Position numbers and translations under genes: made by a program. A stretch of 64,000 nt of DNA from Escherichia phage rV5_ev158: the sequence record LR694611; one strand, written 5' to 3'. Below the pieces are notes generated by a model. That model made no database searches, was not told the DNA's origin, and saw only the letters and a program-made list of their open reading frames with translations. Shown piece after piece: positions 3,793 through 54,657 of this stretch (position 1 is its first letter; each line of letters begins with the position of its first letter).

Positions 3793-4554
3793 ATGCGACG
3801 ACTGATTATTATCTCCGGTGCTGGTTTGAGCGCTGAATCTGGTATTCCCACTTTCCGATCTGGTAGCACTGCAATGTGGGAGAATTTCAGCATCGATGAG
3901 GTGTGCAACATCCACACCTTTGCCAAGAACTACTACAAGGTGCATGACTTTTACAATGCACGTCGTGTAGCTCTAGGCGGTGTTGAGCCTAACCTTGCAC
4001 ATCTTCGGATCGCTGAGTGGTATTCCCGCTGGTCTGGTCGTGTGATCAACCTTACCACCAATGTAGATGATTTGCTGGAGCGTGCTGGTGTAAAACATGA
4101 AGATATTTTACATGTTCACGGGTATTTGCCAGAAATAGTCTATGAGGACGATGAAGGAAGTGACGTCATTAAGGACATTGGATACTCTGAGGTAGATGCA
4201 GGAAAGTATACCTGGGTTAAACCTAATGTGGTGTTCTTCGGAGAAGTAGCTCCGAAGTATACAGACATGTATGACCTGTTGACTTCTCTTACAAGCAATG
4301 ATATGGTTATCCTTGTAGGGTGTTCCAACACAGTTATCAATTTTAACTGGGAGCTATTCCCTGCCTGCAATAAGGGCACCAAACTGCTGATCGTTAACAA
4401 ATACGACTCACAGCATCTAGAGGAGAATGGCATTTCACGTAGTGATATTTACCAGTACGAGGATCGCGGCATCCCGGTTTGGTTTAACGGGGCGGTTGAC
4501 GCTTTCTCTGATAAAACATTCATTGAGACCGTAGAAAACTTTATGGAACTTTAA
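3793..4554 (+). CDS. Sir2-family (sirtuin-like) NAD-dependent enzyme
   Basis: GAGLSAESGIPTFR, TTNVDDLLERAG, HVHG and PNVVFFGE motifs typical of sirtuins; no zinc CxxC pair seen. Confidence 0.8.
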   Translation: MRRLIIISGAGLSAESGIPTFRSGSTAMWENFSIDEVCNIHTFAKNYYKVHDFYNARRVALGGVEPNLAHLRIAEWYSRWSGRVINLTTNVDDLLERAGVKHEDILHVHGYLPEIVYEDDEGSDVIKDIGYSEVDAGKYTWVKPNVVFFGEVAPKYTDMYDLLTSLTSNDMVILVGCSNTVINFNWELFPACNKGTKLLIVNKYDSQHLEENGISRSDIYQYEDRGIPVWFNGAVDAFSDKTFIETVENFMEL

Positions 4555-40052: not shown

Positions 40053-40748
40053 CACACAATCAGCTGCCCGGCTAAAGTGCTGGAAGCGCACCTATAACAC
40101 ATCTTTCAACTAAATTTCCTACCACCACAATCACTTACCTACCACACATGACTGTTTGCTTGTTTAGTGAGCAGTCATGCCTTGACATTCTTGCCTATCC
40201 TGATAAAATTAAGTTCTTCTCTTTTCTTTTACCGAGTAATTCGGGTTTTCTGTTCTCTTCGGTTTGAAGGGGTATGGAGATACACCTGAGTGAACAGGGT
40301 GAACAACCGAACCATTGGCTATGGCATTAGCATGGCGAAGCGGACGGGTGACGAAAGAGGGGCCGGAGGACACCAGTCACTGCCATATGATATATGGGTG
40401 ATAACCTGAAGAGTCTGAATAAGTGTTTAAGTACCAGTCAGAGGAAAAGGTGAATGGTAGCCGAAGGGGGATGGGGGGTTTCTTGTATCTTTAATTTGTA
40501 TATTATGTATACACTTGTAAACCAATCTCATCTGAATCTGTTTACCACACAAAGCGGATAGAGACAAATATCACCTATTAAACTTGAATTATTTATAGAA
40601 AATACCACAACACCACTTAAGTCTTTGATTTTACACACAAATCCTACAGATATTCAACCTCCATATTTAACATACTTGTAACATATTCCATACTCTACCT
40701 GTCTGATCAATTTCCCCAACTACATTCTCATATTTTCCCTGTCTGTAC

Positions 40749-40946
40749 TACCCCTGCCCCGCCGGGAGTCCCGTCATATCTGGCTTTCCAGCAAATATCA
40801 CACCCACAAATATCATTGCCTGAAGAGGGTTTCATCCCATAATACCTGCCTTACCTGAAGAGCGCTTCATACACCACGTAAATTTTTTAATTGACCTCCC
40901 CCTGCCCCGCCGGAGAGGTTGGCTTTTCCCACACAGACCTGAAGAG
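40749..40946. repeat. imperfect direct repeats, each starting CCCCTGCCCCGCCGG and ending CCTGAAGAG
   Basis: 9-mer CCTGAAGAG occurs five times between ~39755 and ~40946. Confidence 0.6.
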
Positions 40947-41522
40947 TCAGCCAGAAATATCTGAACAGGCCCAATTCTACCACGATTTTGACCTGACCTA
41001 CAGGGAGGCCCGAAGGGTCTAGCTTTCAGCTAGAGTCCTTGCAGGACCTACAGGAGCGCTGCCAGGCGGACGGAATGGGAATACTTCTCATTCTTATAAC
41101 AATTCTCAAATATCGAGACAGTGAGAGAAATTAATAGGCCAGGCCGTTCACACAGTGGCACAACATTTGCAACCTATTTTGGGTGGATGAATGAGAATAC
41201 CTATCATTGTGAGAACTGTTATCATTACGGGCAATTTAACATAATACCCATTATGCGCACCACCGGCGATACATACAGGGATTGATAACATGGGTTACTG
41301 TTTACGCACATAACAATTATATTTCTTACTATTTGTGTGGGATATAGTTAGCAGCCGATAGATTAGATATTAACCTGCAGACTTCTGACCGTCCAGACGT
41401 CTAAACGCCCACACACCAAGGATTATACATACACTCCTGAATGTAAACAGGGCCGCAAAAATGCTACCATACAAGCTTGTAAATTTTTCATGCAGCACTT
41501 GACAAAGAGGAGAAAAACTTGT

Positions 41523-41648
41523 CTGACATAATGTGACCTAACTGACACAACATGACACTTTTACACACCTATTAGTTTACACACTGGATTGTTTACATTC
41601 CTGATTGTTCACATGCTAACCATTTACATGATTGACTGTTTACACACC
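41523..41648. repeat. iteron-like short repeats: four TGACA-type at ~10 bp spacing, then five TGTTTACA-type at ~16 bp spacing
   Basis: read directly from sequence in ORF-free region. Confidence 0.5.
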
Positions 41649-41656
41649 GATAATCA

Positions 41657-41950
41657 GCCATGCCATTCGTTTGCATGAAAACAATTAACAAGATAACAAT
41701 CGACAAGTTAATAATCTTTCGCTGGCTATGCCAGGTGACTAGGTCACCCCTTCGGGCGTTCCTATGACATAATATAAAAGCAGGGCAACTATTAGCAGAT
41801 CTATAGTTGCCTTGCTTGTTATGTCATGATTAACTAAATACAAGGCAACTATGATCTGATTAATAGTTTGCAGACAAACTATCACGGGGGTGATGGTTAC
41901 TGCTTTTATATTATGTCGCGACTCCGTCGCGCCATGCCATTCGTTTGCAT
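41657..41950. repeat. composite dyad-symmetry element: 20-bp direct repeats flanking an 18-bp perfect inverted repeat and internal palindromes
   Basis: GCCATGCCATTCGTTTGCAT at ~41657 and ~41931; GACATAATATAAAAGCAG (41766-41783) inverted at 41901-41918; internal hairpins GGCAACTAT/ATAGTTGCC, GGTGAC-TAG-GTCACC, CGCGAC-TCC-GTCGCG. Confidence 0.6.
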
Positions 41951-42558
41951 AGTTGCCTTATTGTTACGAATAAAACAATTGCATTGTTAATGATTTCTTA
42001 TCTTTCTCTTAGTCATCTAATGATTCCAGTCAGTATAGTAATGTACAGTAAACATTAGACGACTAAAGATTTCTCTGTTTATGATAACTCATCTTGATAA
42101 TTTCGGACTGTTTACGAAAAATGTTGACACCTGAGCTGATTTATGTTATGCAGTTTACACGAATAATTATTTTATGCAGGTATTGACTATTCCGTTATTC
42201 TGTGGTTGGAATAAATACTTTGCAGGCTATAGAATGGCGTGCGTACGTGAATTCTGAGATCTGGCGGCTATAGTTATACTCGATTTTTCGCGTAGAACAC
42301 GCTTTCGATGCTGTGTAAGTGTATGACTTATAAAGATTTTTAGTTGTTGACAAGATATTGGAGATGTGCATCAGGTTAAAATTTGTGCAATAGCGGCATT
42401 ACGTGCACTTTTGGGAGAGAAAACGGGTAAAAATGGACTTGCTACCACACAATGAAAAATTATGCAATAGTTATTTTCCATGTATATTTGTACAGTATGT
42501 GGGATTGATGGCTAGTCAATTATTCCACTTGCCAGGTAGGGCCGTTTATGGTAGGAGA

Positions 42559-42590
42559 AGAGCAGACAAAAAGAAAGGGGCCTAAGCCCC
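42559..42590 (-). terminator. intrinsic terminator for the minus-strand block (GGGGC-TTAG-GCCCC then T-run on minus strand)
   Basis: hairpin ~20 nt beyond the stop of gene 42611..43030. Confidence 0.55.
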
Positions 42591-42610
42591 TTGATAATTC
42601 AGTTAAAAAA

Positions 42611-43498: not shown

Positions 43499-43771
43499 TT
43501 ACTTATGGCGGCAGAATTCAAGCGTTTTTAATTGATAATCTTCCTCAGCCTGGAGTACAACCGCCTCGATCATTTCGTTGGCATTGTTGAAGCCATACCC
43601 TTTAGCGAACTCGTCCGCACCACCTTCGTGATCATGTTCTGCGTTCATCGCTTCCACAAAATGGAATTCCAAATTGTTGAGGTAGGGGCTTGATGTGCCG
43701 TCTTCTTTTTCGATGAGATCCCAAATAGCATTAAAACGTGATTCGACTTCTTGATTAATCCAGCTTGACAT
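43499..43771 (-). CDS. hypothetical acidic protein
   Basis: minus-strand ORF. Confidence 0.45.
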   Translation of the reverse strand: MSSWINQEVESRFNAIWDLIEKEDGTSSPYLNNLEFHFVEAMNAEHDHEGGADEFAKGYGFNNANEMIEAVVLQAEEDYQLKTLEFCRHK

Positions 43772-43989
43772 AGTGTTTTCCTCTCTTCTGGTTGTTGTGT
43801 GGGCACCTTTGCCCCTTCAAGATAAATGTTACCCCACCCCCTGGCAGATGTCAACGGTTTTTATAGTTCTTATATGACAGGCAGGCCTGGTGATTGTCTC
43901 CCCCTGTTCCCAAGTGCCGCCCGTTTAATAAGAATAGCAAAAGGGGCCGAACAAGTCAACCCCAAAATCAGTACCAAAACACTTTTTAT

Positions 43990-52783: not shown

Positions 52784-52846
52784 GATTTTATCCTCTTAGT
52801 GTCTTTTGCGATTTCAGTGTATTTTGTGTCAGACCATATGTCAACA

Positions 52847-53044
52847 TTATTTTTTATTAAACCAGTGGTTGATCTGACCTTTTGTCAGGGCGCAACGGTT
52901 AAGCTGTTGCAGGGTATAGCTATGACCGCGACGAAATTTATAAAGGCCTTGCCCGTTGTTGATGGTTACATCCACCCGGCAAATCACTTGATTGGTGACC
53001 ACCTGGCGAGTGTTGCGACGTACTTTAATTCCGTAGGCGTTCAT
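52847..53044 (-). CDS. hypothetical protein
   Basis: minus-strand ORF. Confidence 0.4.
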   Translation of the reverse strand: MNAYGIKVRRNTRQVVTNQVICRVDVTINNGQGLYKFRRGHSYTLQQLNRCALTKGQINHWFNKK

Positions 53045-53139: not shown

Positions 53140-53307
53140 TTATTTTTTTGGGTAGAATTCTCCAGCCGCCGCCCCTGCCAGGTTAACCATCATTTTTTCG
53201 TACTCTTCTTTATGTTCCAACGCTCCCGCCATAGCCTTTTCAACCAGGGCGATAGCCTCAGCGTCATTAATAGCTACATTTTCCAGGGGGATCATATTAC
53301 CTTCCAT
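53140..53307 (-). CDS. small protein (55 aa)
   Basis: MEGNMIPLENVAINDAEAIALVEKAMAGALEHKEEYEKMMVNLAGAAAGEFYPKK; RBS GAAGAGGAGG; below ORF-track cutoff. Confidence 0.4.
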   Translation of the reverse strand: MEGNMIPLENVAINDAEAIALVEKAMAGALEHKEEYEKMMVNLAGAAAGEFYPKK

Positions 53308-53519
53308 TTTTGTACCTCCTCTTCAATTGTTACCTATCCTATAGCATAGGCCCACCAGGTTTGCAAGCCTTCATTCTCTCCTACCTGGTCAGTTAGGCCC
53401 TGCCAGGCTGGCCCCGCCAGGTTGCAGCGGTCAGCGCATCAGGTTAGAATTTTTTTTTTTGAAAAGTGTTGACAGCGGCCCCGCCAGGTGGCAAAATATA
53501 CCTATCGAAAGGACGGCAG

Positions 53520-53700
53520 GCACCGGTGACGGGGGAGACAACCACCGGGGATGGGCGCTGCATGAAATGAGAACGATTATCATTATCGTCTAAAAATTTA
53601 TGCAAAAACTTCTTGCTTTCTTTGTCCTGTGTGTTACTATAATAACAAGCCGGGGCAGTAGGGGCCGGGAGACAATCACCGGGCCTGCCCGTTATTCTGC
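53520..53700. repeat. two ~60-bp direct repeat units, each with GC-rich core GGGAGACAAYCACCGGG and GAGAAYGATTATCATT
   Basis: read from ORF-free region. Confidence 0.5.
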
Positions 53701-53844
53701 AAACGAGAATGATTATCATTCAAAATTCTAAATGAGAACTCCTCGCATTTAATAAATTTAATTAGCACGCTAATTACCCTACGTAACAATTTCCTATAAA
53801 ATAGTATCCACTAAAATATTCCCATATAGAAATTTTAAAAATCC

Positions 53845-54020
53845 ATTTCTGAAAACGAAAAATCGATTTCGTCCCCAAAAATTTCAGGTCGAGAGCCGGA
53901 ACGATTTCCGGAAAATCCGATTCAGAAAACGAAAAACAGATCGAGTACTGAGAAATTTATCGAGAAAAATTTTCAGAAAATTCAATCTTTGAAACGAAAA
54001 ACAGATCGAGTACTTGGAAA
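53845..54020. repeat. three tandem AT-rich ~65-75 bp repeats; core GAAAACGAAAAACAGATCGAGTACT exact twice, degenerate once
   Basis: read from ORF-free region. Confidence 0.55.
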
Positions 54021-54324
54021 GCTGCGCCACAACTTCAAGGTAGTGGTTGGATTATTACTATAAAAGGTCAAGGGTAAGTGGGGGAAGTTCTAGTAGAAGG
54101 GTGTGAGCATGTGCGGGAAATCTGTAATGGTGGTCTGGAATATGGTGCAGACGATAGGATGAGTGGTTCATCTCGTCGTGCCTGCTCTGAAAAATCCATT
54201 TTAGTTTTCGATCCATTTTCTGATTTTCTAAGGATTTTAAAATATCCTGGTAGGTAAAATATCAAAAGGAGGAAATCCATTTTAGAAATCCTCCTGATCT
54301 CTGGCAACCTGATAACTTAAAATA

Positions 54325-54657
54325 TCAGGCTCCCAGTGTGTTCTTTCCTTTATACAACCGTAAGGGTATAGTTTTTGTAACAGTCCATCTCCCCAGCCCT
54401 TCCCAGTTCCAGTTGTAGGCATGGTACCCGGTTACGCATGCACTGCTGGAGTGATCATAGGCATAAGAGAACGCTATACGCACCAAATGAAACCAGTCTT
54501 TCCACGGTTGTGGTCCGTAAGCTTTTCTCCAACACCGACACAAGCTAAATGTCTCAAGAATAGGCAGGATAACAAATCCATACACCGCCACCAGAATAGC
54601 CAACGCAATGATTGTCAGGAATACATACCCTGCAGTTGAAACGATGATCTCTGTCAT
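54325..54657 (-). CDS. membrane protein
   Basis: VFLTIIALAILVAVYGFVILPIL hydrophobic segment. Confidence 0.5.
   Translation of the reverse strand: MTEIIVSTAGYVFLTIIALAILVAVYGFVILPILETFSLCRCWRKAYGPQPWKDWFHLVRIAFSYAYDHSSSACVTGYHAYNWNWEGLGRWTVTKTIPLRLYKGKNTLGA

Follow-up and report, generated by a model that had tools for sequence, protein, structure and literature searches.

A conserved non-coding kilobase of rV5 phages that poorly tolerates transposon insertions: a candidate replication start site or RNA locus

Why would a lytic phage keep a kilobase that appears to encode no protein, and what does that kilobase do? The window, by which we mean the whole 64,000-nucleotide stretch of DNA analysed, is Escherichia phage rV5_ev168 (Vequintavirus). 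An initial annotation, made from the sequence alone, described positions 53310-54320 as an ORF-free kilobase between minus-strand genes, with two units of about 60 bp sharing two sequences, a T11 tract and three tandem AT-rich repeats of about 65-75 bp, and suggested an origin or a regulatory/small-RNA locus. We found the observation to be real, with each feature at its place and only small corrections needed. The shared sequence GGGAGACAAYCACCGGG lies at 53533 and 53667, and a third copy with 1 mismatch lies on the minus strand at 43886-43902, whereas the chance expectation with up to 3 mismatches is 0.14. The second shared sequence, GAGAAYGATTATCATT, lies at 53569 and 53705. The three direct repeats are spaced by 74 and 65 bp, and the outer copies are 63% and 77% identical to the middle copy.

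The corrections are as follows. The 25-mer GAAAACGAAAAACAGATCGAGTACT, said to be exact twice, is exact once, as the second copy differs at its first two bases and 23 of 25 are shared. The kilobase is not literally ORF-free, since ORFs of 34, 48 and 91 aa on the minus strand and 59 aa on the plus strand exist, and some records annotate them, inconsistently. All four, however, are interrupted by stops or frameshifts in at least 2 of 12 Vequintavirus relatives, so the stretch is non-coding. Three things had been missed: both units begin with a predicted plus-strand promoter, GAGAAYGATTATCATT is part of a 19-bp Fur-type palindrome, and the T tract is the A/T tract upstream of an early-type promoter. 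The tandem units, each a sigma-70 early-type promoter, a G-rich hairpin with loop GAGACAAnCACC and a 19-bp Fur-family box, lie on the strand opposite the flanking early genes. The features, as read from the sequence, are listed below. L026 and L027 are relatives, and L003, L005 and L013 are loci of three other lineages.

53349-53426, plus strand: GC-rich repeats GGCCC(C/T)GCCAGG at 53349, 53396 and 53410, with a fourth copy at 53477 inside the P1 spacer; the least conserved part (19% invariant columns), with 53352-53398 lacking in L026 and L027.
53450-53460, plus strand: T11 tract just upstream of promoter P1, varying in length and composition among relatives (T11, AT9, A3T6, A4T5); the family early-promoter consensus is AAAA-N-TGTTGAC-N17-TATAAT (PMC7344957).
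53469-53497, plus strand: predicted promoter P1, TTGACA, 17-nt spacer, CAAAAT with an upstream TG, carrying the GTGTTGACA early-promoter signature and pointing away from the direction of the flanking genes; the hexamers are conserved, with the -10 reading CACAAT or CATAAT in relatives.
53515-53561, plus strand: hairpin 1, a G-cluster-rich imperfect stem-loop enclosing GGGAGACAACCACCGGG (53533-53549), with MFE -20.1 kcal/mol (z -1.9), runs of G5, G4 and G3 and no C runs.
53566-53584: Fur-family box 1, AATGAGAACGATTATCATT, with 1 mismatch to the 9-1-9 family consensus (Xanthomonas Fur consensus AATGAgAATcATTctCATT and related consensuses, PMC1790865).
53613-53643, plus strand: candidate promoter P2, TTGCTT, 19-nt spacer, TATAAT; the spacing is non-canonical and the promoter scan did not call it, but it is the positional homologue of TTGCAA-17-TATATT in other genera, called in L003, L005 and L013.
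53651-53691, plus strand: hairpin 2, enclosing GGGAGACAATCACCGGG (53667-53683) and followed by the conserved TGCCCGTTATTC.
53702-53720: Fur-family box 2, AACGAGAATGATTATCATT, the most widely conserved piece of the locus.
53730-53750: degenerate box 3, AAATGAGAACTCCTCGCATTT; other genera carry 2-4 such boxes.
53759-53776: palindrome TAATTAGC-AC-GCTAATTA, which in most relatives is the perfect 18-bp form TAATTAGCATGCTAATTA.
53762-53790, plus strand: weak candidate promoter P3, TTAGCA, 17-nt spacer, AACAAT (8 of 12 matches), sitting where other genera have a strong extended -10 promoter that reads into the three repeats (homologues called in L005 at 1595-1623 and L013 at 4114-4143).
53774-53878: AT-rich core (28.6% G+C) that received no transposon insertion in phage Bas54, where it is annotated as the 'essential gene' bas54_0101, although the ORF is not conserved (stops in 3 of 12 relatives).
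53825-54020, plus strand: three tandem repeats, a (53825-53881), b (53899-53955) and c (53964-54020), each holding AAATCC(A/G)ATT.., GAAAACGAAAAA and a (G/A)TCGAG core; the plus strand is 60% purine.
54021-54189: variable spacer with substitutions and 1-2-nt indels among close relatives (26% invariant columns).
54190-54261: conserved right-hand block (80% invariant columns) with two ATCCATTTT motifs (54192, 54213), the third copy (54273) lying in the loop of the adjacent terminator hairpin; AAAATATC occurs twice, flanking 8 variable bases.
54267-54295, minus strand: terminator-like hairpin AGGAGGA / TCCTCCT of the upstream minus-strand operon, followed on the minus strand by TTTTGATATTTT, with a compensatory change to AGGAGA / TTCTCC in L026 and L027.
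43870-43965, minus strand: third copy of the promoter-plus-hairpin module (TTGACT-17-TATTCT, loop GGGGGAGACAATCACCAGG), without a Fur box, ahead of minus-strand gene 43499-43771; the only other copy in the 125 kb of the genome examined.

Is the stretch under selection? The initial annotation had named lack of conservation in relatives as a ground for refutation, and this clearly does not hold. Among 11 Vequintavirus genomes the functional blocks are 72-87% invariant, against 26-30% for the spacer and the left ORF and 54% for the neighbouring gene. One relative, AlexBoehm, has a clean 134-nt deletion that fuses the two units. The architecture recurs in Certrevirus, Mydovirus, a Serratia phage and Phapecoctavirus, and thus across Vequintavirinae and Stephanstirmvirinae, always in a roughly 1-kb gap. 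Plus-strand promoters are followed by boxes, an A/T-rich stretch and three repeats at 63-78 bp spacing in the four lineages checked for repeats, whereas the repeat cores are lineage-specific: GATCGAG(A/T)AC, CCTCTCAAGTCC or AAACTTTAAAT. A search through a flanking protein added only two more Vequintavirus loci in IMG/VR. The sequence does not appear to be captured from the host, as there is no E. coli match and only one hit, on a 4-kb metagenome-assembled contig, was found among one genome each of 185,579 species.

Functional importance is indicated by published HIDEN-SEQ transposon sequencing of phage Bas54/MaxBurger, which is 99.3% identical here. The gene identifiers were mapped by counting TA sites per ORF, and 53310-54320 holds 65 TA sites. 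None of 11 TA sites was hit in 53774-53878, 5 of 15 were hit in the promoter units (53443-53719), with about 13 reads against about 200, and 1 of 3 was hit in 53884-54030. In contrast, the flanking genes were hit at 18 of 21, 12 of 14 and 13 of 13 sites. Since the transposon has no terminator and the next early promoter, at 52846, serves the genes further downstream, polarity is an unlikely cause. Lack of insertions could nonetheless reflect poor transposition into protein-bound or unusual DNA rather than lethality, and these counts do not separate cis from trans function, or replication from other roles. Taken with the conservation, the locus is a real functional non-coding element, and the published 'essential gene of unknown function' bas54_0101 and its poorly tolerated neighbour bas54_0102 are relabelled here as parts of it.

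What, then, is the element? The interpretation in the initial annotation is partly supported: an origin-type or an RNA-type function remains the best pair of readings, between which the evidence does not decide, and the locus is probably one or the other. The 'iterons', however, are three long repeats rather than a classical iteron array next to an initiator gene. We tentatively favour, at somewhat less than even confidence, a cis-acting replication start region of the transcription-activated kind. In this view, host RNA polymerase would fire early from P1 and P2, and perhaps from the weak P3, all pointing against the flanking genes. The G-cluster-rich 5' end of the transcript and the purine-rich RNA made across the 29% G+C core and the repeats would favour a stable RNA-DNA hybrid or local opening, from which the phage's T7-like DNA polymerase would extend and where its gp4-like primase-helicase would load. 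The three repeats would be binding sites for a phage-specific protein, and the Fur-type boxes between promoter and core would bind a conserved host factor, most likely Fur, which gates or shapes the complex. What our analysis establishes is the sequence anatomy, its conservation, the lack of coding capacity and the insertion intolerance in the 99.3%-identical phage, whereas transcription from these promoters, hybrid formation, priming, the start of DNA synthesis there and binding by Fur (with any iron dependence) or by any phage protein are inferred.

Several properties are consistent with this view. P1 is called by the promoter scan and homologous promoters are called in three other lineages, although these are sequence predictions only. 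G+C is 29% in 53726-53878, against 43% for the window. The genome encodes a T7-like DNA polymerase and a helicase/primase, as also given in the rV5 paper. The plus strand is 55-60% purine here, against 45% in the flanks, and three to four runs of G3 or longer follow each promoter. No plus-strand intrinsic terminator follows any of these promoters in four lineages, nor the repeats in L003, L005 and L013, which fits transcription into a DNA element better than discrete RNA genes. In an unrelated viral contig the same boxes are interleaved with perfect DnaA boxes, about 2 kb from a primase-helicase gene. On the other hand, there is no change of GC-skew sign across the locus, and the rV5 paper found skew changes only where transcription direction changes. 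A search for TTWTNCACA found no DnaA box in 53310-54320 and no enrichment in the window. The neighbouring genes are not conserved between lineages and have no known domains, apart from NADAR in ukendt, so that no conserved initiator gene lies next to the locus. A second insertion-free non-coding region, at about 40060-42600 of the window, looks at least as origin-like, with GTTTACA iterons and large inverted repeats, and could be the origin instead; the k-mers it shares with the present locus do not exceed the control level.

The main rival, which we regard as unlikely but only slightly less likely than the origin, is an essential non-coding RNA locus, in which P1 and P2 would each make a small RNA starting with the conserved hairpin, its loop GAGACAAnCACC acting as a seed or a protein-binding site, while a downstream promoter would make a repeat RNA from the three purine-rich units to titrate or guide a protein. 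The RNAs would act in trans, and the DNA would have no role beyond encoding them. The conserved plus-strand promoters, the sense-like purine richness and the spread of insertion intolerance over about 600 bp are in line with this, and the hairpin, whose loop is conserved, would sit at the very 5' end of the transcript. A hand-drawn 6-bp closing helix of hairpin 2 is 97% paired in 11 other lineages with 2 compensatory positions, although 27-33 of 500 shuffles reach the observed values. In other genera the same gap carries a further roughly 100-nt structured-RNA candidate on the same strand, with its own promoter and a pair that covaries GC:5 / AU:5; a covariance model of RNA-A, the upstream structured-RNA candidate of other genera, found no homologue in the window. 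Besides the missing terminators, RNAalifold found no consensus hairpin in 15 sequences, and folding energies are mostly no better than shuffles, with z of +0.1 to -3.0 for single hairpins and -1.7 for the 380-nt plus strand, against -0.8 for the minus strand. Rfam searches at gathering and permissive thresholds, on the window and on six related loci, gave nothing credible, and no tRNA or tmRNA was found. The untouchable core is low-complexity A/T sequence, the third hairpin module tolerates insertions (bas54_0131, 11 of 12), and the repeat cores differ completely between two E. coli phage lineages, rV5 and ukendt, which argues against a shared host RNA-binding target.

Two other readings are much less likely. 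The locus could be another essential cis-acting DNA site, such as the headful packaging start (pac) or a nucleoprotein organising site, with the three repeats and phased A/T tracts recognised by the small terminase or another phage protein and the promoters incidental. The insertion intolerance of a non-coding stretch, the regularly spaced repeats with lineage-specific cores and A5-6T6 tracts, and the circularly permuted, terminally redundant genomes of related phages (PMC3475682) would suit this, and the second non-coding region could then be the origin. However, the locus lies in the early region, about 12 kb beyond the end of the plus-strand structural-gene block of the window, the conserved promoters, 5' hairpin and Fur-type boxes have no role in this reading, and only about 2 of 40 records start within 2 kb of the locus, close to chance. 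Alternatively, it could be an ordinary intergenic control region, possibly Fur-regulated, with antisense promoters that tune the two small minus-strand genes downstream, its conservation reflecting regulation only. It does sit between a terminator and the next genes, it holds promoters and operator-like palindromes, and the other copy of the promoter-plus-hairpin module lies ahead of an ordinary gene. Yet the downstream genes are dispensable or nearly so (12 of 14 and 13 of 13 sites hit), the genes after them have their own early promoter at 52846, no convincing minus-strand promoter was found inside the region, and a kilobase that is near-invariant in its blocks is far more than such control needs.

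The Fur-type boxes deserve a closer look. Fur boxes are 19-bp 9-1-9 inverted repeats (Xanthomonas AATGAgAATcATTctCATT, Shewanella AATGATAATAATTATCATT, B. subtilis aaTGAtAATnATTaTCAtt; PMC1790865), and boxes 1 and 2, at 53566 and 53702, match the family consensus at 17 of 18 specified positions. The window holds four matches, against 0.19 expected, and the four matches in the 125 kb of genome examined all lie in the two non-coding regions. Unlike a typical operator, the boxes do not overlap the promoter hexamers, as they begin 69 nt (box 1) and 59 nt (box 2) after the -10 hexamers of P1 and P2; they lie about 65-85 nt downstream of the predicted plus-strand start sites, and no scan-called minus-strand promoter overlaps them. 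They sit in a lytic phage, occur in arrays of 2-4, and the left half-site is always GAGAAT rather than the enterobacterial GATAAT. A more far-reaching possibility, which we consider improbable although it would be of high interest if true, is that two subfamilies of large lytic enterobacterial phages share an essential, host-polymerase-transcribed non-coding module of early promoter, G-rich 5' hairpin, Fur boxes, A/T core and three repeats that starts DNA replication through an RNA-DNA hybrid and is gated by the host iron regulator Fur. The phage would then time or license its replication by the iron status of the cell, and the same Fur-type boxes beside DnaA boxes or iterons in unrelated viral contigs would point to a wider, unrecognised use of Fur as an origin-associated host factor.

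Literature searches for an origin, a transcriptome, replication data, Fur boxes in lytic phages or the motif strings themselves found no description of this locus among the papers searched. The rV5-like phages (Vequintavirinae) and their Phapecoctavirus relatives are widely isolated and used as therapy and biocontrol candidates, yet neither their origin of replication nor any non-coding function has been defined. If the element is the origin, it supplies the cis element needed for engineering, for plasmid-based propagation and for understanding host dependence, whereas if it is an RNA locus, it would be a rare case of an essential non-coding RNA in a lytic phage. Either way, the confinement of Fur-type boxes to the two non-coding regions that take few or no insertions suggests an unexplored link between host iron regulation and lytic phage development.

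How does the element compare with described systems? The T7 primary origin consists of tandem promoters phi1.1A and phi1.1B followed by an AT-rich stretch, and T4 oriF/oriG of a promoter plus a downstream unwinding element with an R-loop primer. Here too tandem promoters read into an AT-rich segment, and transcription is presumed to open or prime the DNA. However, the promoters are of host sigma-70 type, because the phage has no RNA polymerase of its own, and three long repeats, Fur-type boxes and a conserved 5' hairpin are added. T4 origins are dispensable, whereas this region tolerates insertions poorly. Like iteron origins (lambda ori, P1 oriR, plasmids R6K and pSC101; P4 ori plus crr), the locus has direct repeats with lineage-specific cores next to an A/T-rich stretch, with putative host-factor sites nearby, and, as with P4 ori plus crr, the genome has two separate non-coding regions that take few or no insertions. 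It differs in having only three repeats with a 65-74 bp period rather than 17-22 bp iterons, and in lacking an adjacent initiator gene and DnaA boxes. The pseudo-ToxI repeat RNA of phage phiTE (PMC3475682) is also a non-coding repeat locus in a related phage, but it lies at a different locus, its period is 36 nt, there is no sequence similarity, and no ToxI-like sequence is found in the phiTE homologue of this region. An identity as a type III antitoxin mimic, which would call for near-identical tandem repeats of about 34-40 nt, was therefore rejected. The promoter-stem-loop cassettes of T4-type phages (PeSL) are likewise repeated modules of an early sigma-70 promoter joined to a stem-loop. 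Here the stem-loop follows the promoter and has a conserved loop, and only three copies were found in the 125 kb of genome examined, but both kinds of module can recombine, as the fusion of two copies in AlexBoehm illustrates.

The stretch 53310-54320 matches the Escherichia phage rV5_ev168 genome (LR694610.1, Vequintavirus) at 100% identity, with the window coordinate equal to the record coordinate − 63948. It lies inside a long run of small minus-strand early genes, between the 110-aa gene at 54325-54657 and the 55-aa ORF at 53140-53307. Although this 55-aa minus-strand ORF matches PHROG 21957, it is frameshifted in 5 of 12 Vequintavirus relatives. It may not be a stable gene, in which case the non-coding stretch would extend to about 53045.

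The initial annotation described this kilobase as ORF-free, with two duplicated GC-rich units, a T11 tract and three tandem AT-rich repeats. The observation held: the motifs are where they were placed and are far above chance. Two corrections apply. The 25-mer, which was described as exact twice, is shared at 23 of 25 positions, and the kilobase holds ORFs of 34-91 aa that several GenBank records annotate, inconsistently. In an alignment of 12 Vequintavirus genomes, each of these ORFs carries stops or frameshifts in at least 2 genomes, and phage AlexBoehm has a clean 134-nt deletion that fuses the two GC-rich units into one. The stretch is therefore non-coding. Read on the plus strand, opposite to the flanking genes, it has the following order of parts.

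Left part: GC-rich GGCCC(C/T)GCCAGG repeats, poorly conserved, then a variable A/T tract (the T11 tract).
Predicted promoter P1 (plus strand): TTGACA-17-CAAAAT with an upstream TG, carrying the GTGTTGACA signature of the early promoters of this phage family.
Unit 1: a G-cluster-rich hairpin around GGGAGACAACCACCGGG, then the 19-bp palindrome AATGAGAACGATTATCATT.
Unit 2: a second predicted promoter (TTGCTT-19-TATAAT), a second hairpin and the box AACGAGAATGATTATCATT, followed by a degenerate third box.
Core: an 18-bp palindrome and a 29% G+C segment.
Repeats: three repeats 65-74 bp apart, each with AAATCC(A/G)ATT.., GAAAACGAAAAA and a (G/A)TCGAG core.
Right part: a poorly conserved 170-bp spacer, then a conserved block rich in ATCCATTTT.
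Terminator: the terminator hairpin of the upstream minus-strand operon, which closes the region and shows a compensatory change in two relatives.

The plus strand is 55-60% purine from 53466 to 54189, against 45% in the flanking genes, and three to four runs of G3 or longer follow each promoter.

We compared 11 Vequintavirus genomes. In the promoter, hairpin, box, core, repeat and right-hand blocks, 72-87% of columns are invariant, whereas the figures are 26% in the spacer, 30% in the left ORF and 54% in the neighbouring gene. BLAST against phage records showed that the unit 2 core is conserved at 72-88% identity in distant phages that share no other DNA here. These include Certrevirus (phiTE, CR8), Mydovirus, Serratia phage Kashira, Enterobacter and Salmonella phages, and Phapecoctavirus of the separate subfamily Stephanstirmvirinae. 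In each of the five distant records whose annotation was inspected, the element lies on the opposite strand within a minus-strand gene cluster, in a gap of roughly 0.8-1.3 kb without minus-strand genes. A pattern scan of IMG/VR added 14 loci with the same sequence layout. The shared order is an early promoter, a hairpin with loop GAGACAAnCACC, TGCCYGYYATTC, one to four boxes, usually a further extended -10 promoter, and then three repeats at 63-78 bp spacing in the four lineages checked for repeats. The repeat cores are lineage-specific, GATCGAG(A/T)AC, CCTCTCAAGTCC or AAACTTTAAAT, whereas the boxes and the hairpin loop are nearly identical everywhere. This pattern suggests a phage-specific binder for the repeats and a conserved factor, probably a host factor, for the boxes.

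The box sequence AATGAGAATnATT(A/C)TCATT equals the published Xanthomonas Fur-box consensus AATGAgAATcATTctCATT and belongs to the 9-1-9 Fur-box family of Shewanella and Bacillus (PMC1790865). In the 125 kb of the rV5_ev168 genome examined, only four sites match the family consensus within three mismatches, against 0.19 expected in the window, and all four lie in the two large non-coding regions. Binding by Fur is an inference from sequence, and the boxes do not overlap the plus-strand promoter hexamers. The same box occurs in many unrelated viral contigs, often in arrays. In one of these, a 5.8-kb contig (L040, about 1180-1340), two Fur-family boxes are interleaved with three to four perfect DnaA boxes (TTATCCACA) about 2 kb upstream of a Toprim-plus-DnaB primase-helicase gene, and the region looks like an origin.

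Each lineage can form a GC-rich stem-loop that would begin at the predicted 5' end of the transcript. RNAalifold found no common structure in 15 sequences, and folding energies were mostly no better than shuffles. A six-pair closing helix drawn by hand on 11 lineages is 97% paired and has two compensatory positions. It is reached by 27-33 of 500 shuffles and clearly beats the slid controls. We count this as modest support for pairing, in RNA or in single-stranded DNA. Only three copies of the promoter-plus-hairpin module exist in the 125 kb of genome examined. The third, at 43870-43965 on the minus strand, has no Fur box and lies ahead of an ordinary gene, being followed by a second promoter (TTGACA-17-TAACAT) and gene 43499-43771. 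The corresponding Bas54 span tolerated insertions at 11 of 12 sites.

An experimental link is provided by phage Bas54 of the HIDEN-SEQ preprint (10.1101/2025.11.20.689424), which is MaxBurger and is 99.3% identical to the window here. Its gene identifiers were matched to window coordinates by counting TA sites.

Table. Published transposon insertions in Bas54 at the locus and its flanks (Bas54 identifier; window span; what it covers; TA sites hit; notes).
bas54_0101; 53774-53878; AT-rich core and repeat a; 0 of 11; classed 'essential'
bas54_0102; 53443-53719; the two promoter units; 5 of 15; about 13 reads against about 200
bas54_0100; 53884-54030; repeats b and c; 1 of 3; 5 reads
bas54_0099; 54325-54657; upstream flanking gene; 18 of 21
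bas54_0103; 53140-53307; downstream ORF; 12 of 14
bas54_0104; 52847-53044; next downstream gene; 13 of 13

The transposon carries no terminator, and the authors argue against widespread polarity. The genes further downstream have their own early promoter at 52846. The two 'genes' with the strongest phenotypes, the 'essential gene' bas54_0101 and the 'strong fitness defect' gene bas54_0102, are therefore pieces of one non-coding element. They correspond to ORFs that are not conserved as coding sequence and should be re-annotated as non-coding. The authors separately note that the roughly 2.5-kb gap at window 40060-42600, between bas54_0134 and bas54_0135, takes no insertions. This first large non-coding region holds GTTTACA(C) iterons at about 41540-41650 and large inverted repeats at 41740-41930, flanked by two copies of ATGCCATTCGTTTGCAT. 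It also holds two Fur-family boxes (41074, 41190) plus a weaker one at 41210, and two copies of CCCTGCCCCGCCGG. Plus-strand early-type promoters at 42122 and 42345 face minus-strand genes.

We tentatively favour a transcription-activated replication start region, a reading held at less than even confidence. The proposal of the initial annotation, an origin or a regulatory/small-RNA locus, is in part supported. What the analysis itself establishes is the sequence layout, its conservation, the lack of coding capacity and, from the published counts, the insertion intolerance in a 99.3%-identical phage, whereas transcription from the promoters, hybrid formation, priming, and binding by Fur or by a phage protein are inferred. 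The layout of tandem promoters, A/T-rich core and repeats resembles the T7 primary origin and T4 oriF/oriG. The phage encodes a T7-like polymerase and a gp4-like primase-helicase but no RNA polymerase, and host sigma-70 promoters would therefore have to do the priming. In this view, the G clusters just after the start sites and a purine-rich transcript would favour RNA-DNA hybrids. No plus-strand terminators delimit RNA genes in the four lineages scanned, and lineage-specific repeat cores are typical of an origin and its binding protein evolving together. On the other hand, there is no skew switch at the locus, no neighbouring initiator gene and no DnaA boxes, and the other insertion-free region, with its GTTTACA iterons and large inverted repeats, may be the true origin.

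The main rival, somewhat less likely, is an essential non-coding RNA locus. It gains weight from a conserved, covarying structured-RNA candidate of about 100 nt that sits with its own early promoter in the same gap and on the same strand in other genera, just upstream of the hairpin promoter (loci L003 1353-1462, L005 1307-1416, L013 3857-3966 and, in ukendt, L007 1368-1472). Its sequence runs ACGCCACCCCACGGCGAAAAGGCGGGGCUAAC(G/A)UACC, a variable hairpin, then GGU(C/U)GGAAGGUGGAUCGCCGGUAG, and one pair covaries GC:5 / AU:5. A covariance model finds it in 20 loci, including four lineages not used to build the model, but it has no Rfam family and no homologue in rV5. A packaging or other cis site, and an ordinary control region, are each considered unlikely. 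Nothing in Rfam matches the locus, and in the literature searched no paper apart from the HIDEN-SEQ gene-level table describes the locus, the motifs or an origin for these phages. The rV5 genome paper marks a 'non-coding' box and reports that skew analysis did not locate an origin. In our reading, the locus resembles known promoter-driven, repeat-bearing cis regions and differs from them in its unusual set of added parts.

Between repeats b and c, at 53954-53963 on the minus strand, lies an exact copy of TCGATAAATT, the high-affinity H-NS nucleation motif, which is invariant in all 12 Vequintavirus genomes. In Certrevirus, Mydovirus and L013, a direct repeat GTAAA-N5-GTAAA, the CpxR-type consensus, abuts the -35 hexamer of the hairpin promoter (L003 about 1463-1480; also L005 and L006), whereas in ukendt (L007) it sits 10 bp, about one helical turn, further upstream, and the rV5 units lack it. 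A jumbo-size viral contig of 347 kb (L009, 1245-1291) carries only the 3' half of the element, CACC..TGCCTGCTATTC, a short gap and the Fur-type box, directly behind a TGTGTATAAT promoter and without a 5' hairpin arm. Fur-family boxes also occur as tandem arrays in several unrelated viral contigs (L048 1808-1885; L057; L052; L066; L083), one example having three identical copies 30 bp apart, and ukendt has four boxes at 29-bp spacing (L007 1591-1699).
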